Counted from the stretch's first letter, positions 19,527 through 54,707 are shown. The stretch is DNA of 64,000 bases from a bacterium (GCA_965219955.1 OZ244799.1:480001-544000); one strand, 5' to 3'. Translations and numbers: made by a program. The notes: generated by a model from the letters alone, not told the origin.

Positions 19527-19574
19527 GGACCCCGGACAGGCACGGAGGCCTGTCCCTGCAATACGCGGTGTGGT

Positions 19575-22688: not shown

Positions 22689-22704
22689 TGAGGATAAGGG
22701 GAAC

Positions 22705-24044: not shown

Positions 24045-24057
24045 AGGGGAAGTGCAG

Positions 24058-25356: not shown

Positions 25357-25376
25357 CCGATTTAGAGTGATCTTGT

Positions 25377-27278: not shown

Positions 27279-28093
27279 AAGCGGACTTAGATATTGATCG
27301 TTGCTTTACTGTCGCAGCCTATTCTGCGTTCATGGTGCTGCGACAATACCTCGCCAAGAATCCAAATGCTACACCAAAAGATGCTGTGAACATCATTGAG
27401 GCCACAAATGCTGATGATGCGGGACTAGATTTTCTTGGTGGCCAAGAAATATACCTACACTTGAATGATATACTTGATCTCTCGTCTGGCACGAACCATC
27501 TTCGTGTTGTTATTGGTGAATTGATCCGCTCAAGTAGTCCATGGTGGATTCGCCTTATCCCTTACGGGCGAGAAAAAGTGAGATCCGCCTTACACCTAAA
27601 CCAAGTGCAATGCCTTAGAGAAGCAGGGTTATTGGATCCCGTTCCCGACGCTGAAGCCATCGCTTGGTGGGATGAGATAGCAGCTCTCATGAGAGGGGTG
27701 GTCGATAGCGAGCGCATGCTTCAAGCGAGACAAGCAGAACGGTTATCCCTTGAGTATGAACGAGCTCGCTTGAAAAACTTGGGAATTCATTTAGAACCCG
27801 TCTGGGTATCATTGGATGATAACACCCTTGGCTATGACATTCAGTCTTATAACAAGGAACCTAGTGGTATCGTGAGCCGCTTAATCGAAGTCAAAAGTAC
27901 AACCAATGACAGCATCTACATTACCAGAAACGAATGGCGTAACGCAGTGAGCACCAACCAAAGTTACTTGTTCCACGTTTGGTTCATGCCAGATCAAGAG
28001 GTGGTCGAGTATACTACCAATGCTATGGAACCCAGTATTCCTCTTGATAAGGGAACGGGTGAGTGGCAGAATGTCCGAGTAACTTTGTCATGA
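27275..28093 (+). CDS. DUF3883/NO VEIN-type PD-(D/E)xK nuclease domain protein
   Basis: AERLSLEYER, GYDIQS, IEVKST, ITRNEW. Confidence 0.8.
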   Translation: MKADLDIDRCFTVAAYSAFMVLRQYLAKNPNATPKDAVNIIEATNADDAGLDFLGGQEIYLHLNDILDLSSGTNHLRVVIGELIRSSSPWWIRLIPYGREKVRSALHLNQVQCLREAGLLDPVPDAEAIAWWDEIAALMRGVVDSERMLQARQAERLSLEYERARLKNLGIHLEPVWVSLDDNTLGYDIQSYNKEPSGIVSRLIEVKSTTNDSIYITRNEWRNAVSTNQSYLFHVWFMPDQEVVEYTTNAMEPSIPLDKGTGEWQNVRVTLS

Positions 28094-28194: not shown

Positions 28195-28830
28195 ATCAGG
28201 ACTTTTTAAACAACCCTCTTGTCAGGGGGGCTTTTCTTGCGCCTTCTCGTCGGGAGCGGTATCGCCTTTACCCCCCTCAAGGGGGGTGGGGCAGGGGGAT
28301 GGTTTTAAGTCAAACGAAGGCGAGTGGATGGTGTGGCGGATTACGCGCCGGTTCCCCTTTCTGCCACGCAGGCGGCCACGAAACCTCATCCCGAGCAGGC
28401 CCGAAGGGCCGTACGAGGGAGCGCCTCTTCGGCAGGCACGGGACAGGCCCTTCGATACAAACACTCCTTTCTCGGGGCTGTTGATAAAGTCATTCTTGGT
28501 CGTAATGACGGCCAAAACCCGAAACCGGGCGGAGCCGCAGTCTGTCGCCTTGAAAACCAACCCCCCCTACCCCCCCCTTGTCAGGGGGGCAAGAAAAAGC
28601 AAAACCCCCTCGGCCCAAAGGGGGCGCATCGCTTTTTTATACCCCTCTGACAAGGGGGGGGTAGGGGGGGTTGGTTTTATCCCCTGACAAGACGGGCTTT
28701 TTCAACAACCCCTCCCCGGTCGTGTTCGACCTCCGGCGGCTACTCGGGGTGAGGGGCGCCGGGCAACGCCGGAGCCTGCCCCGGACGAAGTCGAGGGGCC
28801 GCTGCCCGGGGTGAGGCGGAGCGGCGGCCG
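28195..28830. repeat. Composite repeat cluster including a MITE-like unit at 28474-28712
   Basis: GGGGCTGTTGATAAA...TTTTTCAACAACCCC termini around CCCCCCTACCCCCCCTTGTCAGGGGG palindromes. Confidence 0.75.
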
Positions 28831-33400: not shown

Positions 33401-34594
33401 TCTCACCGTGAGCGCCTCACCGTGGACGACCGCATCGCCCAGGGTCACCGTCGCGGTCTTGCCGGAGACGGTGGCCGTGCCCGTGCCATTGATGGTCCGG
33501 TCCGTGCCGCCCGGGCGCGTCGCGCTCACGCGGAACGCGCTCCCCGCCGGGCGCGAGCCGGTGTCCAGGGCCAGGTCGAAGGTCACCGTGAGCGTCGTTC
33601 CGTTCACCGACGCGCTGGAGAACATGGGCGCCGGCGTCTCGTTGTCCGCCTCCTTGCCGGAGAAGTCCGCCGTCTTGTTGCCGACCGCGTCCTTAAGCGG
33701 ATTGGTCGCCGGCTCCATGTATCTCACCCTGAGCCTCTCGCCGTGGACGACCCTGCCGTCCAGGGTCACCGTCGCGGTCTTGTCGGAGATGGAGACCGTG
33801 TCCTTGCCGTTGATGGTCCGGGGCGCGCTGCCCTGGCGACTCGCAATCACGCGGAACGCGCTCCCCGCCGGCCTCGATCCGGCGTCCAGGGGCTCGTCGA
33901 ACGTCACCTTCAGCGTCGTCGCGTTCACCGACGCGCTGGAGAACACGGGCCCCCACCTGTCCGGGTTCTTTCGTGCGTGGACGGCGATCTTCAGGGCATG
34001 GTCGGTGATGGACCCGACCCACGAACCGGTGCTTTGGTATCCCCGGAAGTGGACCAGGTCCGCAATACTCCAGTCTGGCTCCCCGGTCTCCGAATCCGAA
34101 GCCGTGAGCTGGACCTCGGCGTCACCCGGGCTGGAGACATTGAGCGCCACCCAGTATGTCGTATTGGGTCTCATGAAGACGCTACTGTTTTCGGAGAGCG
34201 TGAAACTGTTGACCCCCTGTACCAGCGACGCCGGGTTCTTCAGCGTGCTCGAGAGGGCGGAGGTGTACGGCGTGCCGTCGTTGTCCCGGTAGATGGTCAC
34301 TTTGTAGTCCGGCTGCGTTGTGATAGTAGAGAACTCGATGTCCACGCTGGTGAGCCAGTAGCCGTAGCGGTGGCTGTCCGTGGTGAACGCCTGGGCGAAA
34401 TCGTTGCCGAGGCTTGTGGAAACATCGGACGACTGCCCGGTGTTGTCCACCACTTTGATCGGAGTCTGCGTCGGGGTCTGCGCCCCGGCGGCGCCGGCGG
34501 CGAACAGCAGGGCGAGGGCGAGCAGGCAGGCCGCCGCGCGCCGCGCGCGGAAGCGGTTCGGTTCGATAGGATTCAGGCATTCTTTCGCTTTCAT
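30491..34594 (-). CDS. Autotransporter-like adhesin with tandem SwmB-type repeats, an Ig-like domain and a C-terminal beta-barrel
   Basis: Signal peptide; five repeats of the TLTVTFDE.LD..S.P...AFRV...L.D.AGN type; WGRSDFGSFEG barrel; C-terminal YRF. Confidence 0.85.
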   Translation of the reverse strand: MKAKECLNPIEPNRFRARRAAACLLALALLFAAGAAGAQTPTQTPIKVVDNTGQSSDVSTSLGNDFAQAFTTDSHRYGYWLTSVDIEFSTITTQPDYKVTIYRDNDGTPYTSALSSTLKNPASLVQGVNSFTLSENSSVFMRPNTTYWVALNVSSPGDAEVQLTASDSETGEPDWSIADLVHFRGYQSTGSWVGSITDHALKIAVHARKNPDRWGPVFSSASVNATTLKVTFDEPLDAGSRPAGSAFRVIASRQGSAPRTINGKDTVSISDKTATVTLDGRVVHGERLRVRYMEPATNPLKDAVGNKTADFSGKEADNETPAPMFSSASVNGTTLTVTFDLALDTGSRPAGSAFRVSATRPGGTDRTINGTGTATVSGKTATVTLGDAVVHGEALTVRYTAPGTGPLQDAAGNDAFGFTSQSADNDTPDAALPAATDATVYENTLTVTFNEALDAGSRPAGSAFRVSATPPDGAPRNIAGAGAATVSGMTATVTLGQAVAHGEAVTVSYTAPGANPLQDKAGNDAEDFSGFGAANDTPAEPDTTPPALWSATAQGSVLVLTYSETLNPGRTPGPERFSVRVAGQRRTVTDVEIRGGAVVLTLASAVAEGQAVRLTYEVPAGSGPGNAGIQDYAGNLARPIRNRRLAGDTRRPMLVAATVEGAALTLTYDEELDPSVAPLTGSFRVRRTFDTRDPNDANYANTPVRLDVEIVGVTSVRVRDRAVILTLAKAVAEDDRVRVTYHIDDDYRIQDYAGNGAGLLESIDVPYGPPPTTRTPPPGGGGGGGGGTPDAAPSFGGASVAALVLARGAAMEPVALPAAAGGDGALTYGLTSEPAGLAGLVFDPATRRLSGTPQAAGRYEFTYTAHDADANRAVADAAALTFAVTIQAAPNPAAREAVRRVLRRTLAAVGTRTLAGALGNVNARFADIAPGTGVRLAGREVLLGGAVPAVLERACPAERYERPVYERAAPGGCGAAGITSDELMRASAFTWTPASADGDGAPGAPLWAVWGRSDFGSFEGRPEAGARYEGETRTGWLGFDMRRGPWVAGLALSHGTSETDYGFDSEGASGRGRLETTLTAAYPYGRWRFANGLELRLVLGAGEGEARHRPEDEERETGDLDMRMASVGLRRELAPVGGFELAVRADASFVRMEVGAGPETISGVNADTRRLRLGLEASRRVELGGGAALTPFLEAAARRDGGDGLTGSGIEIAGGARYTAARLQVEARGRWLAAHSEDDAREQGVSVTVRMGPGAEGRGLSFALTPRWGAPAGGAEALWRDEIPRLAAVAREAAVDARVGYGFAWAGRGLVTPFAETSAGESSSRLRLGTRFEAARADLDVEFAGERTERETADPSHGLRLDVRYRF

Positions 34595-35089
34595 GTCGTA
34601 CCCCTCCTCGCGCGAACCCCGCGCCGGCGCGGCCGGAACGCGGGGTTCGCGAAGCATGTATTGTGGGATGAATTATTGTGGGATGAATGGAAAAATTCGA
34701 GGCGAAACGGGGAGGAAACAGGCTCAGCCTTAGGGCGGGGACTCGGGATCGGGCGGGAGCGGCGCTCCCGGCGGCGGCCGGCGCGGTCCACGGCGTCAGC
34801 CGCGCGGACGCGGCGCCCGGTTCGAATCAGGTTCAGGCGTGCCCTTGCTTTCAAGTCGTACTTGCCCCCGTATGAAGAACTGCGCACCGGCGCCGTCGCC
34901 GGGCGGTGTTACGGGGTCATGGCCGGATGTATTGGAAGGCCGTATGTAGGATTACGCCTCGTGGGAAGTATATTCTCGCATTCAGGATATACTATGGGAG
35001 GAGTATGCCTCATTGATCCTGAAATGTATATACCCTGTCGGGGAGATTTTTGTTTTTGCGCGTTTTTTCGGCGCCGGGGCGTCCGGACC

Positions 35090-39568: not shown

Positions 39569-40627
39569 TCACCCGGCGGCATCGCCCCTCTGATTCCAAT
39601 CCACACTGTCCGGATAGAATTGCTCGCAATAGCGCCGGAAGGTTCCAATCTCTCCGTCGGAGCCGCACAGGCGGGGGCGGGGGATATACTGTTTACGGTC
39701 CCATATGACGACGTCCGATAACACGTCGCGCTTCTGGGCCGCCATGATGATTTTGTTCATGAGCCGGGTGCGGAGACCTGACGGCAGGAAGCGCATGCCG
39801 ATGATCGCCCGCTTCGGCTCCCGCAACCGCTTCACCTGGCTGACCAGCACCATTTCGAGCAGGTCGCCGTCGACCGGCGTTGCGAGCACCCACAGGCGCG
39901 TTTCCATGCCGAGGCCGTGTTCTTCGACCTCGACGTAGGAATAGCCCAGCCCGTGCACGTGGGTGACGGCGGAAACGTCGTATGTGTAGACCTTTACGCC
40001 GGCTACTTTCTGGCTTCGCGTGAAGTCGAAGCAGCTCTTGAGGTAGGAGCCTTCCACCTCGATGGTGCCGACCCGGTTCACGCTGCCGAAGCCGTGCACG
40101 TAGCGCAGGTGTCCGTCGTCGACGGAGTTCTCGGTCGTCTCCTGGGGATGCCCCGTGAACCTGACGCTCCAGGTCTCCAGCTCGCTCCAGTCGTCCCCGG
40201 CAGGTTCTTCCGGGAGGCGCCATTGCGGCGGCCGTCCGCCGACCCCCCGCCAGGCGAAGACGAGACCCAGGATTTCGCGCGTCTCGAACACGTTCAGCCT
40301 GGCGGTTCTGGGCGCGGGCGCGTAGGGCGTCTTGACGCATTGCCCTGTGGCGTCGTACTCGAACCCGTGGAAGGGACAGACGAGGCAGCCGTCCCGCACT
40401 ACGCCGCCGACGTCGGGGCCGAGTTCCGAACCCAGATGCGGGCAGAGGTCCTCCGCCACGCAGATGCGCCCCGCATCGTCGCACCAGACGACGATTTGCT
40501 CGCCCATCCAGGTTTTCTGGATCAGTTTTTTCTTCTCTATCGTCTTTCGGGTGGCGATGAAGTACCAGCCTTCGGGGAATGGGTAAAGCGAGGCTGTTTC
40601 TTTGCGCTCGATTCGCTCGGCTTTCAT
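39569..40627 (-). CDS. Rieske non-heme iron oxygenase, Neverland/DAF-36/KshA-like (sterol-acting)
   Basis: FPEGWY, CPHLG...CPFHG, ENSVDDGHLRYVH, DVVIWDRK.Y..PRL...DG.I..FRRY..QFY. Confidence 0.85.
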   Translation of the reverse strand: MKAERIERKETASLYPFPEGWYFIATRKTIEKKKLIQKTWMGEQIVVWCDDAGRICVAEDLCPHLGSELGPDVGGVVRDGCLVCPFHGFEYDATGQCVKTPYAPAPRTARLNVFETREILGLVFAWRGVGGRPPQWRLPEEPAGDDWSELETWSVRFTGHPQETTENSVDDGHLRYVHGFGSVNRVGTIEVEGSYLKSCFDFTRSQKVAGVKVYTYDVSAVTHVHGLGYSYVEVEEHGLGMETRLWVLATPVDGDLLEMVLVSQVKRLREPKRAIIGMRFLPSGLRTRLMNKIIMAAQKRDVLSDVVIWDRKQYIPRPRLCGSDGEIGTFRRYCEQFYPDSVDWNQRGDAAG

Positions 40628-40712
40628 CGGTATCCGCCATCCCCTGGTTCAAAGGCCGCCGCTTCGCCCCCGTGCAGGGCGTCGCGCGAGGTCATCGGGT
40701 GAGACCTGACGC

Positions 40713-41645
40713 CTAGAATCGATAGCGTATCCCCAACTCGAAAAGATGAATCCGCAAATCTGTCGTCGCCCTGACCGACGCACTCCTGTCGGCACTCGTG
40801 GCGGTGAACTCGAACTCGCTGGTTTGCTGGTAGCGGTAGCCCAGCTGAAAAGTAATGGCGTCCGAATACTGGTAGCCTATTCCCATGCCGAACTGATAGA
40901 CCACCCCCGAGTCGGCGCCTCTGACGTCGGGTATGGACCCCGGCGGCACGGCGGCCTGGGCCCCCAGAATAGCCTGCTGCCGGGCTTGTTCTATGGCTTG
41001 TGGAGGCGTGCCCGGAGGCAGGTTTCCCAACACGGTCGCCACCGCCACCGCCTCGGCAATCGCCAGTGCGGGCCCCCGGGGGTCATACTCCAGGTCGCCC
41101 TGATCGACCCGAATGAAGCCGAGGCCGCCGCCGATATAGGGTTTCCAGCGGGAAGCGGTGCTGATGTCGTACCAGAGGTTCACCGTGGTGCCGAACTGGC
41201 TGGCCGGGCCGGAGACCGGGATGTCCCTCGGCGGAACATCGAGGCCTGGCAACAAGGGACTGGAGATTCCGGTGTACGTCAGTTTGTCGACCTCGGACTT
41301 TCCGTAGAACACCTCGCCCTCGACGCGCAGACCCGAGTCGAATCTCCGGCCCAGGGCGCCGCTGATCCGGAACCCCGTTGCGTACGAGTTGGTGGCCGTC
41401 GAAGTGTAGGGGACTGGTATTGGTGATGGCGCGATAGCGGCTTCGCCGGCGGAGACGCTCACCGAGTCGTCGATGAACATGACCGGCACGTTGAAGCTCA
41501 TGTACCATTTCGAACCCTGAGTTTCCGCGCCTGAATCCGCGGCGCGCGCATCGGGCGTGAACGCCGGGAGGAGGAACACGGCAAGAATTACCGCCGTAAA
41601 GATCATCCGGTTACGAGTGTTTTCCCGGTGTGAAATCAGTCTCAT
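40713..41645 (-). CDS. Outer-membrane beta-barrel protein (Opa/P44/OmpA-like)
   Basis: Signal peptide; GLRVEGE, NLWYD, PYIGGGLG, QLGYRY; C-terminal YRF. Confidence 0.8.
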   Translation of the reverse strand: MRLISHRENTRNRMIFTAVILAVFLLPAFTPDARAADSGAETQGSKWYMSFNVPVMFIDDSVSVSAGEAAIAPSPIPVPYTSTATNSYATGFRISGALGRRFDSGLRVEGEVFYGKSEVDKLTYTGISSPLLPGLDVPPRDIPVSGPASQFGTTVNLWYDISTASRWKPYIGGGLGFIRVDQGDLEYDPRGPALAIAEAVAVATVLGNLPPGTPPQAIEQARQQAILGAQAAVPPGSIPDVRGADSGVVYQFGMGIGYQYSDAITFQLGYRYQQTSEFEFTATSADRSASVRATTDLRIHLFELGIRYRF

Positions 41646-41832
41646 GGCCTCTCCTCGTTTTCAGGTCGACTCGAACATATCTGCATAATCGCTCAACGGT
41701 CGATATCATCCGGTTTCTTCCCCAGAGCGGAACAAGAGCGATAAAGCCTTACGGAATCTGTATTATGGATATACTCAAAGACGCTCTCACCTTTGTCAAG
41801 TTTTTTCCAGGCGGTAAGGACGGCGGCAGGTC

Positions 41833-42055
41833 GGGTCTGTTGAAAAACTCCTATCCGACCTTCGAGATTGTTCGCCGTAGGGACAGGCCTCCGTGCGAGA
41901 TTGTTCGCCGTAGGGACAGGCCTCCGTGCCTGTCCTGCTCTTCGTGGTTGTCCTTCGTCAGGACAGGCACGGAGGCCTGTCCCTACAGAGCCATCGCGCC
42001 TGCGTCGCGTGAACCTACATGCCGCCGACCCCGAAACAGGCTTTTTCAACACCCC
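41833..42055. repeat. MITE-like unit with family A REP cargo and an internal 33-bp tandem duplication
   Basis: GGGTCTGTTGAAAAA...TTTTTCAACACCCC; CGAGATTGTTCGCCGTAGGGACAGGCCTCCGTG twice (41863-41928). Confidence 0.8.
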
Positions 42056-42100
42056 CGGCTCCCGCGGGCCGCCCGGGGAACCCGGCGCGGGACAGAAAAC

Positions 42101-42129
42101 TTGAATCCATCGATCCGCTGGGCCATAAT
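42101..42129 (+). promoter_or_regulatory. Putative sigma70 promoter of the MMPL-SMT genes
   Basis: TTGAAT-N17-CATAAT; similar to 46976-47005. Confidence 0.5.
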
Positions 42130-42281
42130 GATCTCACTTTGGTTCACTGTTGCGACCGCCCGGGCGTCATGGACTTCCACCGCGCAAGCCGCGTTGCGAT
42201 GCTCGGGATTCGCAACCAGTTCACAACCGCCCCCGGAACCGGCGGGTACGCTGCGGCTATACGCCGCCGTATAGCGAGGCC

Positions 42282-44567
42282 ATGATGTCCGCACCTCTGA
42301 ACCGCTATATTGCGTTCATGTTGCGCCGCAGACGGCTGGTCCTCGCGGCGAGCGTAGCGGTCATGCTGATACTGGCGGTCGGCCTCCGCACCATCGTCAT
42401 CTCCAACGACTGGCGCGACATGCTGGACGAGGGCAATCCCCAACTCGTCGCGTTCGACGCCATGGAGGCCACCTATTCGGCGACCAATGCGGCGGTGATC
42501 GCAGTCGCGCCCAAGGGGGGGGCGGTGTTCACCCGCGAGGCGCTCGGCGCCGTCGAGGAGTTGACCGAAGCCGCCTGGCGCGTGCCCAGGGCCATACGGG
42601 TCGACTCCATTACGAACTATAACCACACGGAGGCGGAAGAGGACGACTTGATCGTGGAGCGCCTCGTGGACGACGCGGGATCACTCAGCGATGCGGATCT
42701 CAAGCGGATCGAGAAGATCGCGCTGAGCGAGAGCAGCATCGTGGGCCGTCTCGTCTCGGGAGACGGGCGCGTTGCCGGGCTGGTCATCAGTTTCGCCTTG
42801 CCCGAGCGTTCGGACGCCGCGGAGATCCGGATTTACAACCATATCCGCGGCCTCCTTGAAAAATCCCGGAAGGCCCACCCGGACATCGAATACCACGTGA
42901 CCGGCAACGTCTTCGTGAACCAGGTCCTGACGGAAGCGGCCCAGGACGATATGGGGATCCTCGCGCCCGCGGCGTTCTTCATCATCATAGCCGTCGCCGC
43001 CATTCTGCTGCGCTCCCTGTTCGGCACGCTGTCCCTCGTCGCCGTGGTCATCTTCACCGTCATCTCGACCATGGGCGTCATCGGCTGGATCGGCCTGGTG
43101 CTCAACGCGGCCAACTCCAGCGTTCCCCTCATCATCATGACGCTCGCCATCGCGCACTCGGTCCACGTCGTCGAGTCGATCATTTCAGGCATGAGGGGAG
43201 GGCTGGACAGGGACGCCGCGATCGCCGGGTCGATGCGCGACAATGCCTGGCCCGTGTTCCTGACGACGGCCACGACGATGATCGGGTTCTTCAGCATGAA
43301 CGCCTCGGACTCTCCGCCTTTCCGGATCCTCGGCAACCTGGTGGCGTTCGGCATGCTGTGCGCCTACGCCTATTCCATGACGCTTCTGCCGGCGCTGCTG
43401 TCGGTCCTGCCGTTGCGCGCGCGTCCGGCGGGCGCCGTGGGTTCGGGCCTCTTCGACCGGCTCGGCGCCTTCGTCGTCGCGCGCCGCGCGCTCCTGCTCT
43501 GGGCCCTGGCCGCCGTTGCGATCGCGCTCGTGGCGGGCGTGCCCCGCGTCGAACTGACGGACAACTGGACGCAGCATCTGGATAAGCGTTACGAGTTCCG
43601 GCGCGACACGGATTTCGTCATCGAGAACCTGACCGGCGTGGAAACCCTGGAGTACTCCCTGGACTCCGGGCGCGAAGGCGGCATTACCGATCCCGGGTAT
43701 CTTCGCAAGGTCGAAGCCTTCGCCGATTGGTACCGCGCCCAGCCGGAAGTGGCGCACGTCCAGGTGTTTACGAACATCATGAAGCGCCTCAACAAGAACA
43801 TGAACGGCGATAATCCCGCCTTCTACCGGCTGCCGGAAAACTCCCGGCTCGCCGCGCAGTATCTGCTGCTCTACGAGCTTTCGGTCCCCTTCGGCATGGA
43901 CCTCAACAACCGCATCAACATCGCCAAATCCGCGACGCGCATGACCGTCACGCTCAAGAGGCTCAAGTCCGAGGAGCTGCGCGCGCTGGAAGCGCGCGGG
44001 CAGAAATGGCTCAGCGCCAACGCGCCCGACCTCGCGAAAGAGGCGTCGGGTTACAGCCTCATCTTCGCCCATCTGGCCATTCAGAACACCTTGAGCATGT
44101 TGTGGGGCACGCTCACCGGCATGATCCTCATTTCGCTGATCCTGATCGGGATTTTCAAGAGCCTGCGCCTCGGCCTCATCAGCCTCGTGCCCAACCTCAT
44201 CCCCGCGGCCATGGCCTTCGGCGTCTGGGGTTATCTGTACAGCGAGGTGGGGCCCGCCGGCTCTCTCGTGACCGCCATCGCCTTCGGCATCGTCGTCGAC
44301 GACACGATTCACTTCATGAGCAAGTATCTGAAGTCGCGCCGGGATGGTCATTCGGCATCCGAGGCGGTGCGCGCCACCTTCCGTTCGGTAGGCTTTGCGC
44401 TGTTCTCTACGACCTCGATCCTGGTGCTGGGCTTCCTGGTATTCGCCACGTCGGGATTCGCGATCACCTGGATGCTCGGCCTCCTGGTGGCGCTCACGCT
44501 TAGCTTCGCGCTGATCCTGGATTTGCTGCTCCTCCCGCCCCTGCTGATAGCCCTCGACCGGAAGTAA
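42282..44567 (+). CDS. MMPL/RND-family lipid transporter
   Basis: Two halves with periplasmic domains; LTTATTMIGF.S, GIVVDDTIHF, LDLLLLPPLL. Confidence 0.92.
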   Translation: MMSAPLNRYIAFMLRRRRLVLAASVAVMLILAVGLRTIVISNDWRDMLDEGNPQLVAFDAMEATYSATNAAVIAVAPKGGAVFTREALGAVEELTEAAWRVPRAIRVDSITNYNHTEAEEDDLIVERLVDDAGSLSDADLKRIEKIALSESSIVGRLVSGDGRVAGLVISFALPERSDAAEIRIYNHIRGLLEKSRKAHPDIEYHVTGNVFVNQVLTEAAQDDMGILAPAAFFIIIAVAAILLRSLFGTLSLVAVVIFTVISTMGVIGWIGLVLNAANSSVPLIIMTLAIAHSVHVVESIISGMRGGLDRDAAIAGSMRDNAWPVFLTTATTMIGFFSMNASDSPPFRILGNLVAFGMLCAYAYSMTLLPALLSVLPLRARPAGAVGSGLFDRLGAFVVARRALLLWALAAVAIALVAGVPRVELTDNWTQHLDKRYEFRRDTDFVIENLTGVETLEYSLDSGREGGITDPGYLRKVEAFADWYRAQPEVAHVQVFTNIMKRLNKNMNGDNPAFYRLPENSRLAAQYLLLYELSVPFGMDLNNRINIAKSATRMTVTLKRLKSEELRALEARGQKWLSANAPDLAKEASGYSLIFAHLAIQNTLSMLWGTLTGMILISLILIGIFKSLRLGLISLVPNLIPAAMAFGVWGYLYSEVGPAGSLVTAIAFGIVVDDTIHFMSKYLKSRRDGHSASEAVRATFRSVGFALFSTTSILVLGFLVFATSGFAITWMLGLLVALTLSFALILDLLLLPPLLIALDRK

Positions 44568-44700
44568 TCATGCTCCGGGCTCCGTCTCTCCCGATTGGCG
44601 CAGAGGGTCTCCGCGCTGCGTGGGTGCGGCCTTCCGGCAACAGGTGCGCTGCGAAGCGCCGCACGCAATGCGCCCGAACACGCTCGACTGACGCATCGTC

Positions 44701-45732
44701 ATGACATCCAAACCCAGGCTCACCGACATCCTGAAAGACGCAAAAACCGGTGACCGCGTTGCCTCTGGCATCCAGGAATATGACCGGCGCTACGGCGGCG
44801 CGGAACGCGGCGGCCTGGACGAGCGCAAGACGGACTACCTGGACTTCGAGAGAAGCTATTACAATCTGGTCACCGATTTCTTCGAGTACGGCTGGGGCCG
44901 GTCCTTCCATTTCGCGCCGCGCGTCGAAGGGGAGAGCTTCGCCGCCTCGCTCGCGCGTCACGAGCACTACATGGCGCACAGGCTGAATCTCCGGCCCGGA
45001 ATGGTGGCGGTGGACCTGGGCTGCGGCGTCGGCGGCCCGTTGCGCGAGATCGCACGCTTCTCGGGCGCGAAAATCGTCGGCGTCAACATCAACGAATACC
45101 AGTTGAAGCGCGCCGCAGAGCTGACGGAAGCGGAGCATCTAAGCCACCTGGCCGAATACCTGAACTGCGATTTCATGCGCGTCGATGCACCGGATGCCAG
45201 CTTCGACGCCGCCTATTCCATCGAGGCGACCTGCTGCGCGCCGGACAAGGCCGGCGTCTATGCCGAGGCGTTCCGCCTGCTCAAGCCCGGGGCTCTTCTC
45301 GGGGTCTACGAATACTGTATGACCGACCTTTTCGACGCGCAGAATCCCGGGCACCTGAAGCTCAAGGCCGATATGGAGCATAGCGGCGCACTGCCCGATA
45401 TCGCCCGGCCGCAAGAAGTCGACGACGCGGTTCGACAGGCAGGTTTCGAACTGCTCGAAGCGTGCGACCTCGCCGCCGAGGCACCGCCGGGGGTTCCCTG
45501 GCACCAGCCGCTGGTCGGCTCCGGCCTGTCCCTGGCGAGTTTCCGCTCCTCGGCGCTCGGGCGCCGGCTGACGCACAGCACGCTCTGGCTGCTCGAGCGG
45601 CTGGGAATCGTGCCGCGCGGGACGACCAGGGTGTCGAGCCTGCTGAACTTCGCCGCCGTCACCTTCGCCGAAGCCGGCCGCCTCGGTATTTTCACCCCGA
45701 TGTATTTCATACTCGCCCGCAAGCCGGAGTAG
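44701..45732 (+). CDS. Sterol 24-C-methyltransferase (ERG6/SMT family)
   Basis: YYNLVTDFFEYGWGRSFHFA, DLGCGVGGP, SIEATCCAP, YEY, C-terminal GIFTPMYFILARKP. Confidence 0.9.
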   Translation: MTSKPRLTDILKDAKTGDRVASGIQEYDRRYGGAERGGLDERKTDYLDFERSYYNLVTDFFEYGWGRSFHFAPRVEGESFAASLARHEHYMAHRLNLRPGMVAVDLGCGVGGPLREIARFSGAKIVGVNINEYQLKRAAELTEAEHLSHLAEYLNCDFMRVDAPDASFDAAYSIEATCCAPDKAGVYAEAFRLLKPGALLGVYEYCMTDLFDAQNPGHLKLKADMEHSGALPDIARPQEVDDAVRQAGFELLEACDLAAEAPPGVPWHQPLVGSGLSLASFRSSALGRRLTHSTLWLLERLGIVPRGTTRVSSLLNFAAVTFAEAGRLGIFTPMYFILARKPE

Positions 45733-45890
45733 GGAGGGGGTGCTGGGGAAGTGTTGATTTCGTGATTCGGCGTATGGAGCCGACCGGGGAGGGGCGGCTT
45801 CTTTGCGAAGCGGACGCCTCTTGCGGTTTTCGTATAACGCCCTCCTGAACCGAAGCGGGTATGGATTTCGCAGTCCGCAGGAAGCGTGTC

Positions 45891-46631
45891 ATGAACAAGT
45901 TCATATTATTCACTTGCCTGACGATTGCGTGCGCGTTCGCGCCGGCGAGGAATGCCTGCGCGCAGTCGATAGAAGAAGCGCGCGCCGCGTATGCCGAGGG
46001 CCGCTTCGTGGAGGCGGCCGAGCTCGCCCGTGCGCTCGGCACTTCCGAAGGCTATACGCTGGCCGCCGATTCACTGGCGATTCATGGCTACTACATGGCG
46101 CCGGAGGGCGAAAAGGAGGGCTTGTTCAAGCGGGCGGAGGAGTCCGCGCGAAAGGCGATCCGGCTCGACGCGGCCAGCCCCGAGGCCCATCTCCAGTTGG
46201 CCCACGCCATGGGCCGCCAGGCGCAGGTGAGCGGTGCGCTCAAGGCGTTGAAAGAGGGCTATGCAACCAAGGTGCGCGATGCGATTGAAGAGGCGCTTCG
46301 GCTGGCCCCGGACTCGGCATCCGCCCACGTCAGCCTGGGCGCCTGGCATGCGGGCGCCGTCGGCGCAGGCGGATTCTTCGCCGGTCTGCTCTACGGGGCG
46401 AGCGCAGAGGACGCTCACGCCCATTTCGAGCGGGCGCTCGAATTGGCGCCTCGGGACAAGGTGGCGCTTTTCGAATACGCGCTTGGTTTGCTGAGCCTGG
46501 ATGCCGATGAGAACCGCGCGAAGGCGCGCGACCTGCTCGAGCGTGCGATAAAATTGCCGCCGAAAAACGCCTTTGAGCGGCTGATTCACCAAAAAGCGGT
46601 CGAGCGGCTCGCGGCTATAAGCGGTGGATAG
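45891..46631 (+). CDS. Secreted TPR-repeat protein
   Basis: Signal peptide; TPR patterns ARKAIRLD..PEAH, EEALRLAP, FERALELAP. Confidence 0.75.
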   Translation: MNKFILFTCLTIACAFAPARNACAQSIEEARAAYAEGRFVEAAELARALGTSEGYTLAADSLAIHGYYMAPEGEKEGLFKRAEESARKAIRLDAASPEAHLQLAHAMGRQAQVSGALKALKEGYATKVRDAIEEALRLAPDSASAHVSLGAWHAGAVGAGGFFAGLLYGASAEDAHAHFERALELAPRDKVALFEYALGLLSLDADENRAKARDLLERAIKLPPKNAFERLIHQKAVERLAAISGG

Positions 46632-46925
46632 GGGGTTGTTGGAAAAATCCCCTTTTTCGGGGGCAGAGGGGACGCCCTGCTCGCCTGGAAAACCAACCCC
46701 CCCTACCCCCCCTTGACAGGGGGGTATAAAAAGGCGACGCCCGCCGCTGGTAGAGGGGCATTTGTTTTTTCTTGCCCCCCTGTCAAGGGGGGGTAGGGGG
46801 GGGTGCCTTTATCCTCTGACAAGAGGCCTTTTTCAACAGCCCCCTCAAGGGGGGAGTGGCTTGATGATGCGTATGTCGTTGAGAAATCTATTTCGGCTCG
46901 TTTGGGGACTGTTTCAACGACCTCA
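46632..46925. repeat. MITE-like unit (46632-46843) plus adjacent repeat remnants
   Basis: GGGGTTGTTGGAAAA...TTTTTCAACAGCCCC around CCCCCCTACCCCCCTTGACAGGGGG palindromes. Confidence 0.75.
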
Positions 46926-46975
46926 CAGGCCCGGCTTCATGCGCTTGTCGGAGCGATAGATACTGAATAAAACAC

Positions 46976-47005
46976 TTGAAATCAATCGTTTTACTGGCCC
47001 ATAAT
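46976..47005 (+). promoter_or_regulatory. Putative sigma70 promoter of the P450 gene
   Basis: TTGAAA-N18-CATAAT. Confidence 0.45.
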
Positions 47006-47112
47006 GCGCTTGGTCGGCTTTCTGCCGCGGCGGCCTGAGCGACACAGTCCCGCCTATTGGAAGCTTCCTGGAGCCATATACTCCTACACCCTGGCTTGGG
47101 GTGCGTTGTTCG

Positions 47113-49170
47113 ATGAGACTGATCGAAGAAATCATACTCCTGCTGCTGAACGAGGAGAGCGGCTATCTCGAACAGGTGGCAGGCTGGAATCTCTCGTGCG
47201 TTCTCGCCGGCGCCGTACTGGCGGACCTCGACCTCGAATCCCGCATCGACACCGCGCACGAGACACTCAAGCTGGACGATTCGACACCTGTGGGAGACGA
47301 CCTCCTCGACCCCGTACTGGCGACCATCGTCCGCGATCCCGAACCACGCAGCGTAAGCTACTGGGTCGAGAAAATCGCCGTCACGTCGGACGAGATACTG
47401 GATCAGGCTCTCGAACGGCTGGTGGAAAACGGGATTCTGGACCATTCGATCGGCGGCTTCTGGTCTCTCTCGCGAAACGCCGCGAATGCCGCCTACAGCA
47501 TGTCCAGCGGCGAGTCCCGGGCGAAAATCCGCCGGCGAATCGTCGATACGATACTCGAGGACGACATCCCCGACCCCCGTGACGCCATTATCATCGGCCT
47601 CGCCAATTCCTGCGACGCGTTCAGGTTTCTCCTGCAGCCGGAAGACTACGAGGCTTCACGCGAACGTATCGAGCTGTTCAGCATGCTGGACCGCATCAGC
47701 CGATCCGTCGCCACCGCCGTCGCGGCGACATCGGTCCGCCGCACCATCAAGACGGCGACGAAGCCCATTCCCGACATCAGCTTATGGAAACTGCTCCGCA
47801 AGGATTCGTTCTGGCAGGGAAATATGTCCAGGATAACGGCCGACCTCTACCGCGACTACGGCCCTGTATTCGCGATCAAGGCTCCCTTCTCCCAAAAGAG
47901 AATCTTCGTCATCGCCGGGAACAAGGCCAACATCTGGGTCAACCGGCGCGGACGGATGTACCTGCGGTCGAAGGATTACATTTCGGGTCTGGAGGAAGCG
48001 CTCGGCGTATCCAGAAGCCTGCCGGGCATGGACGGGGCCGAACACTACCGCATGCGCAAGGCGCAGTACACGGCCTTCACCAAGGGCCGCCTGAACGAAC
48101 GTCTCGACGAACTGCTGCATGAGGTTCGTGTGGGCCTGGATTCGTGGAAAGAGGGCGACGTGCTCATCGCCCGTGACGCGATCCGCAGGCTGATGGCCCG
48201 GCAGGTCACCCAGCTCTCGGTCAGCCTGGACCTTTCGGAATACATGGACGACATCCTCAGCTACAAGAACCGCATGTTGATCACCCACGTGCAAAAGGCC
48301 TTGCCGAAGTTTTTTCTGAAAACACCGAAAATGGCCGCCAAGGGACGGCGCATCGACCAGGTCTACGCCATGATCCGGAACACGCACACGCCGGGGCAGC
48401 GGGAGAACAAGCCGCGCGACCTGATCGACGACCTGCTCAGCCTGCACGCCAGCGACCCGCAGTATTTTCCGGAGGCCGATCACAAGTTTCCGATGATCAT
48501 GGCGTTCGTCGCGTCCATGTACATGGGCACCGCCCTCGCGTTCGCGGTCTTTGAAATGTATTCCAACCCGGACCTCCTTCAGCGCGTCCGCGAGGAAGCC
48601 GAGGCGCTGTTCGCGAACGGAGAACCGGGACCCGAGGACTTCACCGACGAGGCCATGGACACCACCCACAGGCTGGTCCTCGAGGCGCTTCGGGTCTATC
48701 CCAGCGTACCCGTGCAGATGAGAAACGTCATGAACCCCTGCGTCGTGGAGGGTTATGAAATTCCCCTCGGCTCACGCATCATCATGGCGATGACGGCCGT
48801 TCATTACCTGGAGGAGAACTATCCGGATCCGCTTAAGTTCGACATCGACCGGCATCTTCCCGGACGCGAGGAGACCAGGAAACACGGCGCATTCGGGACA
48901 TACGGTTTGGGGACGCACACCTGCCTCGGCGCAAGGGTGGTGGAATATCAGATGACTATCAACCTGATGATGATCGCCTACCACTTCGACCTCGAAGTGA
49001 TGCCCTCGAGCTACCCGATCAAAATCAATCCGTTCCCGACCTGCACCCCTCGCAAGAGCCTCAAGCTGCTGGTCAAGTCGAAGCGGCCGGTCACCCCGAG
49101 CGGCCAGGCGGACGCCTCGGGCGACCAGGCGGGCGCCGCGAGCGAGCGTAAGGTCGCCCTGCATTCCTGA
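47113..49170 (+). CDS. Cytochrome P450 with an N-terminal GPP34 (GOLPH3-like) domain
   Basis: N-terminus LIEEIILLLL..ESG...LAGAVLADL.LE.RID (GPP34-like); C-terminal EALR, DIDRH and heme motif YGLGTHTCLG. Confidence 0.88.
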   Translation: MRLIEEIILLLLNEESGYLEQVAGWNLSCVLAGAVLADLDLESRIDTAHETLKLDDSTPVGDDLLDPVLATIVRDPEPRSVSYWVEKIAVTSDEILDQALERLVENGILDHSIGGFWSLSRNAANAAYSMSSGESRAKIRRRIVDTILEDDIPDPRDAIIIGLANSCDAFRFLLQPEDYEASRERIELFSMLDRISRSVATAVAATSVRRTIKTATKPIPDISLWKLLRKDSFWQGNMSRITADLYRDYGPVFAIKAPFSQKRIFVIAGNKANIWVNRRGRMYLRSKDYISGLEEALGVSRSLPGMDGAEHYRMRKAQYTAFTKGRLNERLDELLHEVRVGLDSWKEGDVLIARDAIRRLMARQVTQLSVSLDLSEYMDDILSYKNRMLITHVQKALPKFFLKTPKMAAKGRRIDQVYAMIRNTHTPGQRENKPRDLIDDLLSLHASDPQYFPEADHKFPMIMAFVASMYMGTALAFAVFEMYSNPDLLQRVREEAEALFANGEPGPEDFTDEAMDTTHRLVLEALRVYPSVPVQMRNVMNPCVVEGYEIPLGSRIIMAMTAVHYLEENYPDPLKFDIDRHLPGREETRKHGAFGTYGLGTHTCLGARVVEYQMTINLMMIAYHFDLEVMPSSYPIKINPFPTCTPRKSLKLLVKSKRPVTPSGQADASGDQAGAASERKVALHS

Positions 49171-49324
49171 CCGGCGAAGGGACAGGCCTCCGTGCCTGTC
49201 CTGATGGCAACCATCCTGCAAAGGACAACCACGGAGGGTTGTCCCTACAACCGCCATTCCTCATTCATCGAGGCTTCTTCAACGGCCCCGACTCTATCGG
49301 GTGCGCAGACGAAAAGAATTTGAT

Positions 49325-50581
49325 CTAGAAATTGTACGTCACGTTCAGGGCCACGAAGCTGTCCCGCCTCGTGTCGTAGATGATGTCCTCCTCGCCCACG
49401 TCCATGAAAACAATCGATTCCAGCTTCATCGACCACTGGTCCGAGAGGCGCCGTCTCAGTTCGAAGCTCATGGTGCGCGTGGAATGGTCCGCGTCCGCGA
49501 GAACCCCGGCGATGATCTCCGTGCTCTGGGCGTCGTTGAGCCCGAGTCGAACGGCGAAGAAGAGGTCGTTCTGGAACTCGGAGTTCGAACGCTCGCGGCG
49601 CTCGTCGTAATTCCATTCGGCGAGCAGGCCGAGGTCGGCGGCCGAGCCGAAAACGGCGTTGAAGGTGTACTCCCCCCCGATGACGAAAGCGGCGAAATCC
49701 TCTTCCATTCCCAGGAGGTTCCGCGCGCCTTCGCGGTGAATGGCTTCGAGCTTGAGCAGCCAGGCCTCCAGTGTGAGCTGGGCGTCCACGCTGACCTGAA
49801 AGATTGGTTCGTAGCGCTGGCGCAGGCTCAGCGCGCCGCGCTCGTCGAAGTGCGGTGTGACGAACGGCTCCCGGCTGGTGCCGTCGAATACGCTGAGCCC
49901 TAAGTCGAAAGGCCCGAAGCTGTGGCTGTAGCGGGCGGCGAGGTCCACGCGCCACTCCCCGGCTGCGCTTTCGTAGGAGACGTGCTCGTCGTCTATGACG
50001 ATCGCGGAGCGCAGGCGGCCGTGAAGGCCCGGGTAGGTGCGCGCGCGGTGATAAGTGAGGGCGAAGAACTCCAGGATGCCCCACTCCGCCGACCAGGTGA
50101 GGTGGGCCATGGGCTGGCCCAGCTTGCTTTCCTTGTTGGGATGCTCGACGAGGTCGGTCTGATTGATGATGTCGACCAGGTGCTGCGATTCGGTGACGCC
50201 CCAGAACACGCGGTCCACGCCCAGGCGCAGCTCCCATTCCCCGTCGCCGGCCTCACCGAACATGAGAAGATAGGCTTCGCGCAAATCGGCGCGGGTGCGG
50301 CGCGAGTCCGCGCCGTCGTAGCGGAAAAACGGCGCGACCGTGAAACTCCAGTTCCCCCCGCTTTCGAGATGGAGTTTCGGCTCAACGGCCAAACCGCTCA
50401 CGTGCGCGCGCTGGTCGGGATGGGCGTTAAGCTGGGGATACCACCGGCCGTCGACGTCCAGGCTGCCGGAAAACTCGTGCTCGATGCTTTCGGCCCCGTG
50501 GCTGGCACCTGCGATAAGGAAAACGGTCAGGATGGCGACGGCGGCCAGCACCGCGCGGTGAAAAGCGGCGCGCATCGGCAT
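49325..50581 (-). CDS. Outer-membrane beta-barrel (DUF1302-like channel)
   Basis: Signal peptide; DLREAY, VFWGVTES.HLVDIINQTD; C-terminal YNF. Confidence 0.75.
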   Translation of the reverse strand: MPMRAAFHRAVLAAVAILTVFLIAGASHGAESIEHEFSGSLDVDGRWYPQLNAHPDQRAHVSGLAVEPKLHLESGGNWSFTVAPFFRYDGADSRRTRADLREAYLLMFGEAGDGEWELRLGVDRVFWGVTESQHLVDIINQTDLVEHPNKESKLGQPMAHLTWSAEWGILEFFALTYHRARTYPGLHGRLRSAIVIDDEHVSYESAAGEWRVDLAARYSHSFGPFDLGLSVFDGTSREPFVTPHFDERGALSLRQRYEPIFQVSVDAQLTLEAWLLKLEAIHREGARNLLGMEEDFAAFVIGGEYTFNAVFGSAADLGLLAEWNYDERRERSNSEFQNDLFFAVRLGLNDAQSTEIIAGVLADADHSTRTMSFELRRRLSDQWSMKLESIVFMDVGEEDIIYDTRRDSFVALNVTYNF

Positions 50582-51399
50582 CAGCGCACCCGTTTCAGCC
50601 CGGTCCGGGTGAATTCGCTGGCTTTGAGCTTGATGCGGAACTTGTAGTTGTTCCAGCGCAGCACGGTGCTCTTGCCCGTGAGGTGGTTCACCATGTTCAT
50701 CTCTTGCGACTGCCAGTACTTGCCCAGATACTTCTTGTAATTCCCTAAAGTGAGCGTCTTCAGGTGCGAGTTCTTCCGGTCGTAGTACTGCACCTTCCAG
50801 GCGCGGAGCTCGCTCTTGTCCTGCCAGATGATCTGGCGCCTGTAGCCCGAGCGCTTGTTCGTCGGGAAGCGCTCGACGACCGTGCAGGTCAGCTTGCCGC
50901 AGGGCTCGTCGCGCAGGTAGCGGTAGGTGAACTTCTCCACCTCCTGGGTGCCCATGTCCTCATAGGCGAACTCGCTGCCCATGAAGGAGCCGGATTGGTT
51001 CGAGGAGCTGATGCGCTTGACCCGCTTGAGAGCGGGCAGGTAGAGCCACTGGTCGTCGTTTTTCTTCTTGTGGGTGTGGACGAGCAGGGCGGTTCCTCTC
51101 ACGTCGCGCGGACGGTCGAAGACGAACAGGCTCTTGTTGCCGCCTCCGTCCGTCTCGAGCACCTTCACGCGCAGCTGGCGCTTGCTCTCCTGGCCGTGCT
51201 TGTTGCGCAGCACCATGGACTGCTCGGCCGTGAAGTTTCCGAAACCCTTGGCTTTCTCGCGGGTATCGCGCGCGATCTGGAGGCCTTTCTCCTCGGGCGT
51301 CGCGCCCTCTGCGTGAGGCGGCGCAAGCGGATGAACCAGAACGCAGGCGCAGATCGCGAGAAGCGGGAGAGTCGTTCGGACGAGATGAGCGTGCATCAT
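50581..51399 (-). CDS. LolA-like outer-membrane lipoprotein-sorting / lipid carrier protein
   Basis: PRDVRGTALL, DDQWLYLPALKRVKRIS, SFMGSEFAYED. Confidence 0.88.
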   Translation of the reverse strand: MMHAHLVRTTLPLLAICACVLVHPLAPPHAEGATPEEKGLQIARDTREKAKGFGNFTAEQSMVLRNKHGQESKRQLRVKVLETDGGGNKSLFVFDRPRDVRGTALLVHTHKKKNDDQWLYLPALKRVKRISSSNQSGSFMGSEFAYEDMGTQEVEKFTYRYLRDEPCGKLTCTVVERFPTNKRSGYRRQIIWQDKSELRAWKVQYYDRKNSHLKTLTLGNYKKYLGKYWQSQEMNMVNHLTGKSTVLRWNNYKFRIKLKASEFTRTGLKRVR

Positions 51400-51639
51400 T
51401 TTTTCCTCCGGTCGATGGCCATCAGCAGAGTCGGCGGAAGCAGAAAATCAGCCATGAGCGTGATAACAAGTTATCCCGAGCAGGAGACCGAGCGCCCTGT
51501 GATTCGCCGATCCCGACGCGGCGAAAGCCAAGAGACCCGGGGCGAAGACGGTGGTTGTCGCACATAACGCATGACCTATGGTGCGAAAAAAGCAGCGAAC
51601 GGCCTCGGGCGGCGAAAGCGCTTCTTTCCGGGCGTCCTT
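51396..51639 (-). pseudogene. Degenerate 3' remnant of a second MMPL transporter gene
   Basis: SPPEAVRCFFRTIGHAL...LGLLLGIT / ITLMADFLLPPTLLMAIDRRKK* aligns with the C-terminus of 42282-44567; its TGA overlaps the LolA-like ATG. Confidence 0.75.
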
Positions 51640-53822: not shown

Positions 53823-54707
53823 ATGAGTCCCGTATCCCCCGATGATCCTTATGAGAGAAAGCGCGTCCGCGTCTTGGGAGCCGAGATGGCGTATGTCGAG
53901 GCAGGCGAAGGCGCGCCCATCGTGCTCCTGCACGGCAACCCGGCCACCTCATATCTCTGGCGGAACGTGATCCCCCATCTCGAAGGCCTGGGGCGGTGTC
54001 TCGCGCCCGACCTCATGAACAGCGGGGCGTCGGAGGACATTCCCGGCGGCGGCTTGCGCTTTCAGGATCACATCCCCTACATGGACGCCTGGTTCGAGGC
54101 AGTCGGAGCGACCAAAGATGCGTTTTTCGTGCTCCACGACTGGGGGGCCGCGCTGGGCTTCAACCGCGTCTCCCGATATCCCGAGCAGGTGGTCGGTCTC
54201 GCCTATATGGAGTCCATGGTGCGCCCGCGCCTCTGGACGGACATGCCCGAGGACAGGGTCGCGCAGTTCCAGACGCTGCGCGGCGAGGCGGGTCTCGCGA
54301 TGGTGATGGAGGATAATTTCTTCGTCGAGACCATGCTGTTCGAGCGGGGAATCGTGCGCGATTTGAGCGAGACGGAAAAGGAGGCCTACCGCGCACCCAC
54401 CCGGGAAACGCAGAAAAGAAGGCAGACCCACCAGTGGGCGTGCGAGATTCCCTTCGAGGGCGAGCCTGCTGACAACTACGAGATCGTGAAGCGCTACAGC
54501 GAATTTCTGCGCACGAGCGGGGATCTTCCCAAACTCTTCATCAACTGCGAGTACGGCCACGCCCTGGCGGGGGCCGCGCGGGCGTTCTGCCGCGAGTGGC
54601 CGAACCAGGAGGAGATCACCATCCCGACGCGCCACTACGGCCAGGAGGACTGTCCCGATGAGATAGGCCGGGCCGTGGCGCGATTCATCCGCAAGTTGCG
54701 AGATTGA
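53823..54707 (+). CDS. Haloalkane dehalogenase (DhaA/LinB subfamily)
   Basis: LHGNPATSYLWRN, HDWG, YMES, NFFVE, HYGQED. Confidence 0.88.
   Translation: MSPVSPDDPYERKRVRVLGAEMAYVEAGEGAPIVLLHGNPATSYLWRNVIPHLEGLGRCLAPDLMNSGASEDIPGGGLRFQDHIPYMDAWFEAVGATKDAFFVLHDWGAALGFNRVSRYPEQVVGLAYMESMVRPRLWTDMPEDRVAQFQTLRGEAGLAMVMEDNFFVETMLFERGIVRDLSETEKEAYRAPTRETQKRRQTHQWACEIPFEGEPADNYEIVKRYSEFLRTSGDLPKLFINCEYGHALAGAARAFCREWPNQEEITIPTRHYGQEDCPDEIGRAVARFIRKLRD

Follow-up and report, generated by a model that had tools for sequence, protein, structure and literature searches.

A putative sterol tailoring and Bst-like trafficking island built around a conserved Rieske, GPP34-P450 and sterol methyltransferase module

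Delivery of sterols to the outer membrane of Methylococcus capsulatus has been proposed to depend on the Bst system, which comprises the MMPL-family RND protein BstA, the periplasmic binding protein BstB and the TatT-family protein BstC (Zhai et al. 2024, PMC10942540). Clusters of de novo sterol genes are known from metagenome-assembled genomes of sponge symbionts (Kelly et al. 2022, PMC9531527) and from bacteria with sterol C24-methyltransferases (SMTs; Brown et al. 2023, PMC10070321), and SMTs from sponge-symbiont metagenomes methylate desmosterol and 24-methylenecholesterol in vitro (PMC10070321). A GPP34 domain joined to a cytochrome P450 was reported as exclusive to sponge symbionts and proposed to be a secreted effector binding phosphatidylinositol 4-phosphate (PI4P), a lipid bound by the GPP34 family in eukaryotes (2025, PMC11706023). 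Here we analyzed a bacterial DNA stretch of 64,000 nucleotides (GCA_965219955.1, OZ244799.1:480001-544000; in the following called the window), in which genes for an SMT, a Rieske oxygenase, a GPP34-P450 fusion and several envelope proteins lie together at positions 39569 to 51639. Judging from its genes and their conserved neighborhoods, this region is probably a sterol tailoring and Bst-like trafficking island. The stretch was found in runs labelled sponge metagenome from three studies, and also in marine metagenome and coral metagenome runs.

A three-gene module shared across phyla

We defined the island genes by calling open reading frames (ORFs) and by codon-position GC content, and assigned families with Pfam. 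All eight island ORFs, located between 39569 and 51399, are intact and have a GC content at third codon positions (GC3) typical for the genome. A preliminary description made from the sequence alone had listed nine elements; all were recovered at the same positions, eight of them clearly and a DUF1302-like barrel weakly.

The core of the island is a module of three genes. These encode a non-heme iron Rieske oxygenase of the KshA family (39569-40627, minus strand; 352 amino acids), an SMT homolog of the SMT/ERG6 family (44701-45732, plus strand; 343 amino acids) and the GPP34-cytochrome P450 fusion, which is a single ORF (47101-49170, plus strand; 689 amino acids). A scan of species-representative genomes with the SMT as seed yielded 80 loci (55-96% identity), which we then searched by tblastn with the window proteins. 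By their titles, these loci belong to metagenome-assembled genomes (MAGs) of Alphaproteobacteria, Chloroflexota/Dehalococcoidia, Binatia, Thermodesulfobacteriota, Nitrospinota, Nitrospirales, Acidimicrobiia and others. Both a KshA-like Rieske gene and a GPP34-P450 fusion were found within 10 kb of the SMT at 20 of the 80 loci, representing at least six phyla, with titles naming Alphaproteobacteria, Chloroflexota/Dehalococcoidia, Binatia, Thermodesulfobacteriota, Syntrophobacterales, Nitrospinota and unclassified bacteria. The remaining 60 loci, mostly of Dehalococcoidia, lack the complete three-gene set, and most of them show the SMT alone in the available stretch.

A metagenome scan seeded with an alignment of the fusion provided an independent test of this linkage. 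It returned 64 loci, with an SMT at 37, the Rieske gene at 32, either of them at 49 and both at 20. When only the 32 loci with at least 3 kb on each side were counted, at least one partner was present at 29 and both at 17. The median gap between fusion and SMT was 64 bp in this set, and several contig prefixes are those of the Aplysina, Petrosia and Sarcotragus sponge metagenomes in the supplement of PMC10070321. The same genes thus recur together in other genomes and in metagenome contigs, and the grouping from which the preliminary description had started is not a matter of chance.

The envelope genes are less frequent companions, found at 16 (RND), 11 (LolA-like), seven (TPR), six (outer-membrane protein, OMP) and four (DUF1302-like) of the 80 SMT loci. 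Together with the module, RND and LolA-like genes occur in diderm-labelled loci only and at none of the seven module-bearing loci labelled Chloroflexota, which fits envelope genes that only diderms need.

In relatives, the module is contiguous with genes for de novo sterol synthesis. In the congener L089, the fusion and two SMT genes lie beside genes for a fusion of squalene epoxidase and oxidosqualene cyclase (SE-OSC), a CYP51-like P450, an ERG24 reductase, an SdmA-like Rieske protein and an SdmB-like dehydrogenase. Its SE-OSC gene (L089:6033-9602, minus strand) is a single ORF of 1189 amino acids combining a squalene epoxidase (SE, FAD_binding_3) with a complete oxidosqualene/squalene-hopene cyclase (both SQHop_cyclase domains), and similarly long frames of 1130-1600 amino acids occur in 11 of 35 SMT-bearing genomes. 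The supplement of PMC10070321 implies such a fusion, as a single gene id there matches both ERG1 and ERG7. The metagenome loci L106 and L150 share the order fusion, SMT, SMT, SE-OSC, CYP51, ERG24, and L150 carries an SdmA-like gene as well. The view taken in the preliminary description, that the island is directed at sterols, is supported by this contiguity and by the fold of the TPR protein, which is that of sterol-binding BstC (see below).

Within the genus, we found the SMT in ten, the KshA-like Rieske gene in 12, the full-length fusion in 11, an ERG4/24-like reductase in ten and the SE-OSC fusion in five of 22 other species. None of these five genes was detected in 18 more distant genomes outside the genus.

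Enzymes and envelope proteins of the island

The Rieske protein has the domain architecture of the KshA family, with matches to Pfam Rieske (65.5 bits) and KshA_C (83 bits), and its translation shows CPH...CPFH cluster ligands and a DDGHLRYVH motif. Its best solved relatives are KshA chains (E 1.4e-23). Named entries among the best 120 homologs are all called "Rieske 2Fe-2S domain-containing protein", and KshA and Neverland branches are not separated. An identity as SdmA (4-beta-methylsterol monooxygenase) was rejected, as NF052579 scored 39.6 bits against a cut-off of 600, over the Rieske domain only. Consistent with the preliminary description, the 52 window ORFs scanned with Pfam contain no squalene epoxidase, cyclase or ring-degradation gene. 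The whole genome holds just two KshA_C genes, each adjoining SMT genes and not catabolic genes; ring degradation was checked there via KshA_C only, the KstD and Hsa genes not being searched.

The SMT matches Methyltransf_11 (64.7 bits) and Sterol_MT_C (80.1 bits against a cut-off of 21.7, profile positions 3-66 of 66) and has 1653 homologs at E<=1e-20. By homology it is an ERG6-type C24-methyltransferase, predicted to methylate delta-24 sterols. Further sterol-type genes are present elsewhere in the genome. A second locus (C1:2276433-2285755) contains two SMT paralogs, 45-46% identical to the window SMT, one of which abuts the second Rieske/KshA_C oxygenase, with a divergently transcribed short-chain dehydrogenase/reductase gene adjacent. 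An ERG4/ERG24-family reductase (C1:2229433-2230569, plus strand; 115.4 bits) lies beside a generic methyltransferase gene; its orthologs (85-97% identity) occur in ten of the 22 congeners, almost all of which also carry island genes.

In the fusion, the GPP34 match (PF05719, 107.2 bits) covers residues 7-209 and profile positions 1-200 of 201, followed by the p450 match (131.6 bits) at residues 229-655. The protein stays a single ORF of 674-742 amino acids in 15 further loci, and the alignment shows no variation at heme Cys608 or in the ExxR motif. We rejected an identity as CYP51, since CYP51 chains matched with E ~3e-18, the best ones over the C-terminal third only, and since identity to the CYP51-like protein of a relative was 23% over 198 residues, indicating a distinct P450. 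A search of the ESM Atlas with the P450 domain returned generic P450 clusters only. The genome encodes two P450s, the fusion and one other, likewise not a CYP51.

The intact transporter gene (42150-44567, plus strand) encodes an RND/MMPL protein with a sterol-sensing-type domain, matching MMPL (PF03176, 108.7 bits) and Sterol-sensing (30.8 bits); its true start is likely the methionine of MMSAPL... near 42282. NCBIfam scores were 148 bits for HAE3 and 60 bits for HpnN, each under its cut-off, and the best solved relatives are MmpL4/5 (E 2e-8). The second MMPL remnant listed in the preliminary description is real: tblastn and three-frame translation identified, upstream of the LolA-like gene, a frameshifted C-terminal piece of another RND/MMPL gene (51457-51633, minus strand), 44% identical to residues 729-787 of the intact protein. 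Alphaproteobacterial loci have a full RND gene at its position. Elsewhere in the genome, a possible further lipid-export locus (C1:3114927-3122509) contains two RND paralogs in tandem, both with sterol-sensing domains and 57-58% identical to the window RND, with an MpaB/Lcp-type oxygenase gene between them and an amine oxidase gene after them.

The exported TPR protein (45861-46631, plus strand; 256 amino acids) has a signal peptide, TPR repeats and a weak match to Pfam TAtT (E 0.0062, 16.3 bits against a cut-off of 26.5). Its AlphaFold2 (AF2) model (pLDDT 88.3) was compared with solved structures using VIA-align. The highest similarities were to 8g52_A, a TPAT family transporter (Z 22.1), and to 7t1s_B, BstC, annotated as "bacterial sterol transporter" (Z 21.4; rmsd 3.2 Å; 216 of 230 residues aligned), followed by TatT (Z 19.5), with generic TPR proteins at Z <=17. 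A phmmer search of the PDB returned generic and designed TPR proteins only, the similarity to BstC being too low in sequence to surface.

The remaining envelope candidates are an outer-membrane beta-barrel protein (40713-41645, minus strand; 310 amino acids; OMP_b-brl 39.5 bits against a Pfam cut-off of 28.7), the DUF1302-like putative outer-membrane barrel (49325-50581, minus strand; 418 amino acids) and a LolA-like periplasmic lipid carrier (50581-51399, minus strand; 272 amino acids). The DUF1302 match is below threshold (20.6 bits against 23.2, on 78 residues), phmmer found no PDB sequence match, and the AF2 model is poor (pLDDT 51.5), with its C-terminal two thirds modelled as a beta meander. 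Phe is the last residue of each putative barrel (...RYRF and ...TYNF). The LolA-like protein matches LolA_like (PF17131) with 202.9 bits and its solved relative 3bk5_A with E 1.4e-77. NCBIfam contained no family for any of these three proteins. Signal peptides were predicted for both barrels, the TPR protein and the LolA-like protein, and for none of the Rieske protein, the SMT and the fusion.

Contigs of three sponge RNA libraries cover seven of the eight island genes (Rieske, OMP, RND, TPR, P450, DUF1302-like and LolA-like) with 90-99% likeness. They indicate presence only, carrying no strand, level or transcript ends, with DNA carry-over possible and uncovered stretches uninformative.

Source of the substrates and alternative explanations

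The genome consists of one contig of 4,283,615 bases with a two-replichore cumulative GC skew returning to about zero. No match was found in it to PF13243 or PF13249 (SQHop_cyclase_C and SQHop_cyclase_N) or to PF08491 (SE), and the SE-OSC fusion of a congener yielded no tblastn match. Queries with CYP51-like, ERG24, SdmA-like and SdmB-like proteins gave none or weak paralog-level tblastn matches. The lack of synthesis genes that the preliminary description had seen in the window hence extends to the single-contig genome and fits the use of exogenous sterols.

We consider it most likely that the island acts here on sterols from the host sponge or from sterol-producing neighbors, although we hold this with somewhat less confidence than the assignment of the island as such. 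The SMT, the KshA/Neverland-family Rieske protein and the GPP34-P450 would be three cytoplasmic enzymes that modify sterols at the inner membrane, and the RND pump, the TPR protein of BstC/TatT fold, the LolA-like carrier and the two barrels would move sterols between the inner and outer membranes. In relatives, the island would work downstream of a de novo sterol pathway. In this genome, with no oxidosqualene or squalene-hopene cyclase, squalene epoxidase, CYP51 or SdmA/B found, its substrates would be exogenous, supplied by the host sponge or by sterol producers among the co-resident symbionts. The preliminary description had read the locus as a sterol capture-and-remodelling island. Exogenous sterols fit this cyclase-less genome, but the de novo pathway in five of the 22 congeners means that the island is not intrinsically a device for capture; rather, it appears to be a unit for tailoring and trafficking that can operate whether or not sterols are made endogenously.

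Cyclase-less carriers are frequent. A cyclase-domain match was present in 17 of the 35 SMT-bearing genomes across phyla. Among the 20 genomes with the full module, eight had a cyclase and 12 had none, and five of those 12 are titled chromosome assemblies. Within the genus, G037 (one contig), G047 (two contigs), G049 and G038 contain the module without a cyclase domain, which was found in the control G055. The island is syntenic in G037, G047, G049 and G055. Among the three cyclase-less genomes G037, G047 and G049, the ratios of nonsynonymous to synonymous substitution rates (dN/dS, Nei-Gojobori) of island genes were 0.06-0.49. This range leaves aside six comparisons whose high-scoring segment pair ran through a stop codon and the RND comparison between G037 and G049 (2.64; dN 2.56), which is artefactual. 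Cyclase-less congeners thus keep the island under purifying selection.

Several points weigh against this reading of the island. Genome completeness is 94.25% and contamination 5.02%, and a plasmid or second replicon would escape the cyclase search. Exogenous sterols would have to move inward to reach cytoplasmic enzymes. The import inferred in the preliminary description gains no support from the known relatives BstABC and HpnN, in which lipid travels outward, from the inner membrane to the outer; by analogy to the exporters HpnN and BstA, inward transport would be without bacterial RND precedent in the cited literature. Pfam found no reductase or ferredoxin partner gene for the Rieske protein or the P450 in the island, and the reaction of neither enzyme is assignable from sequence, including the Neverland-like C7 or KshA-like C9 chemistry considered for the Rieske protein. 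The genome likely synthesizes squalene, as suggested by a NUDIX-HpnC-HpnD fusion (719 amino acids) followed by an HpnE-like amine oxidase (C1:2055190-2058705, minus strand), and this endogenous lipid would leave room for a non-sterol substrate. Decay of the system also occurs: one island RND gene has been reduced to the remnant described above, and G057 has an interrupted copy of the fusion and G043 a fragment.

These instances of decay would also be expected if the island were a relic, left behind by a de novo pathway after recent loss of its synthesis half and now decaying without substrate. The SE-OSC cluster is indeed still present in five of the 22 congeners, in one of them with insertion sequences and a reverse transcriptase gene on its flanks, elements of which the genome analyzed here has several copies. 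We nevertheless regard a relic as unlikely. The eight ORFs are intact with genome-typical GC3, the synteny and dN/dS values of G037, G047 and G049 speak for maintenance, and a cyclase missing from 12 of 20 module genomes in several phyla cannot be explained by a single recent loss. The RNA-library contigs on island genes, though indicating presence only, point in the same direction.

Slightly less probable still is that the enzymes act on squalene or on some other isoprenoid or polycyclic lipid made by the cell itself and that the envelope set exports the product. SMT-like enzymes of the alga Botryococcus methylate squalene, and the genome combines the squalene genes with the lack of a cyclase. 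However, the NUDIX-HpnC-HpnD fusion is present in 22 of 22 congeners, most of which have no cyclase to use squalene; as it occurs with or without the module, it does not track it. Moreover, the module adjoins OSC, CYP51 and ERG24 genes in relatives, SMTs of sponge symbionts accept desmosterol and 24-methylenecholesterol in vitro (PMC10070321), and the TPR protein resembles sterol-binding BstC.

The GPP34 domain bears on the effector function proposed for such fusions. In GOLPH3, the PI4P pocket is formed by W81, R90, R171 and R174 (PMC2806290). In a HMMER alignment of the fusion to GOLPH3/Vps74 chains, W81 is kept as W29 and R90 aligns to Ala36; in the printed alignment of the fusion homologs, read by eye, this position is Ala, Val, Ile or Gly in 16 of 16 and never basic. 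R171 falls into a segment missing from the fusion and R174 aligns to Leu, both in a low-confidence part of the alignment. The idea that the fusion is secreted, binds host PI4P and blocks phagosome maturation, its sterol-gene neighbors being incidental, has in its favor the solid GPP34 match, the reported restriction to sponge symbionts and the PI4P binding of the family in eukaryotes (PMC11706023), but it appears the least probable of the three alternatives given a protein that has no signal peptide, requires heme and cytoplasmic redox partners, keeps only the Trp of the pocket residues and is accompanied by an SMT or KshA-like Rieske gene at 49 of 64 loci, and given two genomes with GPP34 fused to a Rieske domain (PMC11706023), which tie GPP34 to the other oxygenase type of the module. 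Together, the genomic context, the degraded pocket and these GPP34-Rieske fusions suggest that GPP34 is an accessory domain of sterol oxygenases, probably with a lipid- or membrane-handling role. The main text of PMC11706023 contains neither "sterol" nor "methyltransferase", and a literature search joining GPP34, sterol and sponge returned one unrelated paper only.

Other features of the window lie outside the island. Flanking genes for GFO/IDH/MocA oxidoreductases, an alcohol dehydrogenase and a haloalkane dehalogenase were excluded because their synteny extends only to the closest relatives, L005 and L033. The haloalkane dehalogenase (53823-54707, plus strand) scores 332.5 bits with NF002938, against an NCBIfam equivalog cut-off of 241. 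A palindromic repeat with G/C runs, resembling a miniature inverted-repeat transposable element (MITE), occupies the gap between the TPR and P450 genes (46680-46830) and lies also at 28545-28712; it has about 200 blastn matches genome-wide, and in metagenome runs it gives rise to very high depth of contigs and to numerous chimeric joints. A low-GC segment at 22600-28093 (GC 0.47-0.48, against ~0.62), with genes for an N6/N4 DNA methylase, a SNF2-type helicase and a NOV_C-domain protein besides unassigned ORFs, resembles an acquired restriction or defense island, and IS110-family and Mutator-family transposase genes lie upstream of it (16596-17750 and 18150-19586). A stretch of 72% GC at 30491-34657 encodes, on the minus strand, a protein of 1388 amino acids with five SWM_repeat units and Big_5 and He_PIG Ig-like domains; the longest ORF there, on the opposite strand, is spurious by GC3.

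Significance and comparison with known systems

Already published are the gene families, the clusters for de novo synthesis, the Bst system and the architecture of GPP34-P450. New relative to the available portions of the literature compared are the conserved module of Rieske, GPP34-P450 and SMT genes, its coupling to a Bst-like envelope set and its frequent occurrence without a cyclase. Tentatively, and as a proposal that we think less likely to hold than to fail, a horizontally spread sterol-tailoring module shared by sponge symbionts of at least six phyla might use GPP34, rather than as a PI4P effector, as a lipid-handling adaptor on a sterol P450 and occasionally on a Rieske protein, and over half of its carriers, unable to make sterols, might take up, alkylate, oxidize and return sterols of host or community via a Bst-like route.

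Steranes with alkylated side chains, 24-isopropylcholestane among them, are taken for the earliest chemical traces of animal life, and it is debated whether their parent sterols came from sponges or from the bacteria of sponges. Published work, as far as available in text, places symbiont SMTs within de novo bacterial synthesis. The many SMT carriers that have no cyclase and keep two oxygenases and a trans-envelope lipid route under selection suggest a third option, namely that bacteria remodel sterols made by the host or by other symbionts. Under the tentative proposal above, the unconventional sponge sterols with alkylated side chains, which serve as animal biomarkers, would have one source in host sterols remodelled by symbionts. 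The GPP34-P450 fusion, reported as a hallmark of sponge symbiosis with an effector role as yet unproven, gains a testable biochemical role, and Bst-type bacterial sterol transport would, by similarity, extend beyond methanotrophs.

Compared with the clusters of Kelly et al. 2022 (PMC9531527) and Brown et al. 2023 (PMC10070321), the island shares habitat, taxa, SMT family and horizontal spread across phyla, and in relatives that cluster type (SE-OSC, CYP51, ERG24, SdmA/B) is physically joined to the module. In contrast, the window and its genome are devoid of the synthesis genes that define these clusters. The KshA-like Rieske protein, the GPP34-P450 and the envelope set are not given as sterol genes in the available portions of both papers, and the words "Rieske", "P450" and "transporter" have no occurrence in the main text of PMC10070321.

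The window Rieske protein has its Rieske and KshA_C domains in common with both KshA (3-ketosteroid 9-alpha-hydroxylase), its nearest solved relative, and the Neverland/DAF-36 cholesterol 7-desaturases. For KshA, a KshB-type reductase and ring-cleavage genes would be expected nearby, but neither was found among the window ORFs scanned with Pfam.

As in BstABC (PMC10942540), an MMPL-family RND protein and a TatT-family TPR protein are encoded beside sterol enzymes. The window RND corresponds to BstA at the level of the MMPL family, and the TPR protein to BstC by fold and weakly by sequence. For BstB (Phosphonate-bd family), no counterpart was found among the scanned window ORFs; the window has the LolA-like carrier and two barrels instead.

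The two-domain architecture of the fusion is the same as that of GPP34_L in sponge-symbiont genomes of many phyla (Microbiome 2025, PMC11706023), a work reporting 656 proteins with the GPP34-P450 fusion. Unlike the effector proposed there, the window fusion has a mostly unconserved PI4P pocket and stands at the center of a module in which an SMT and a KshA-like Rieske oxygenase are its conserved partners.

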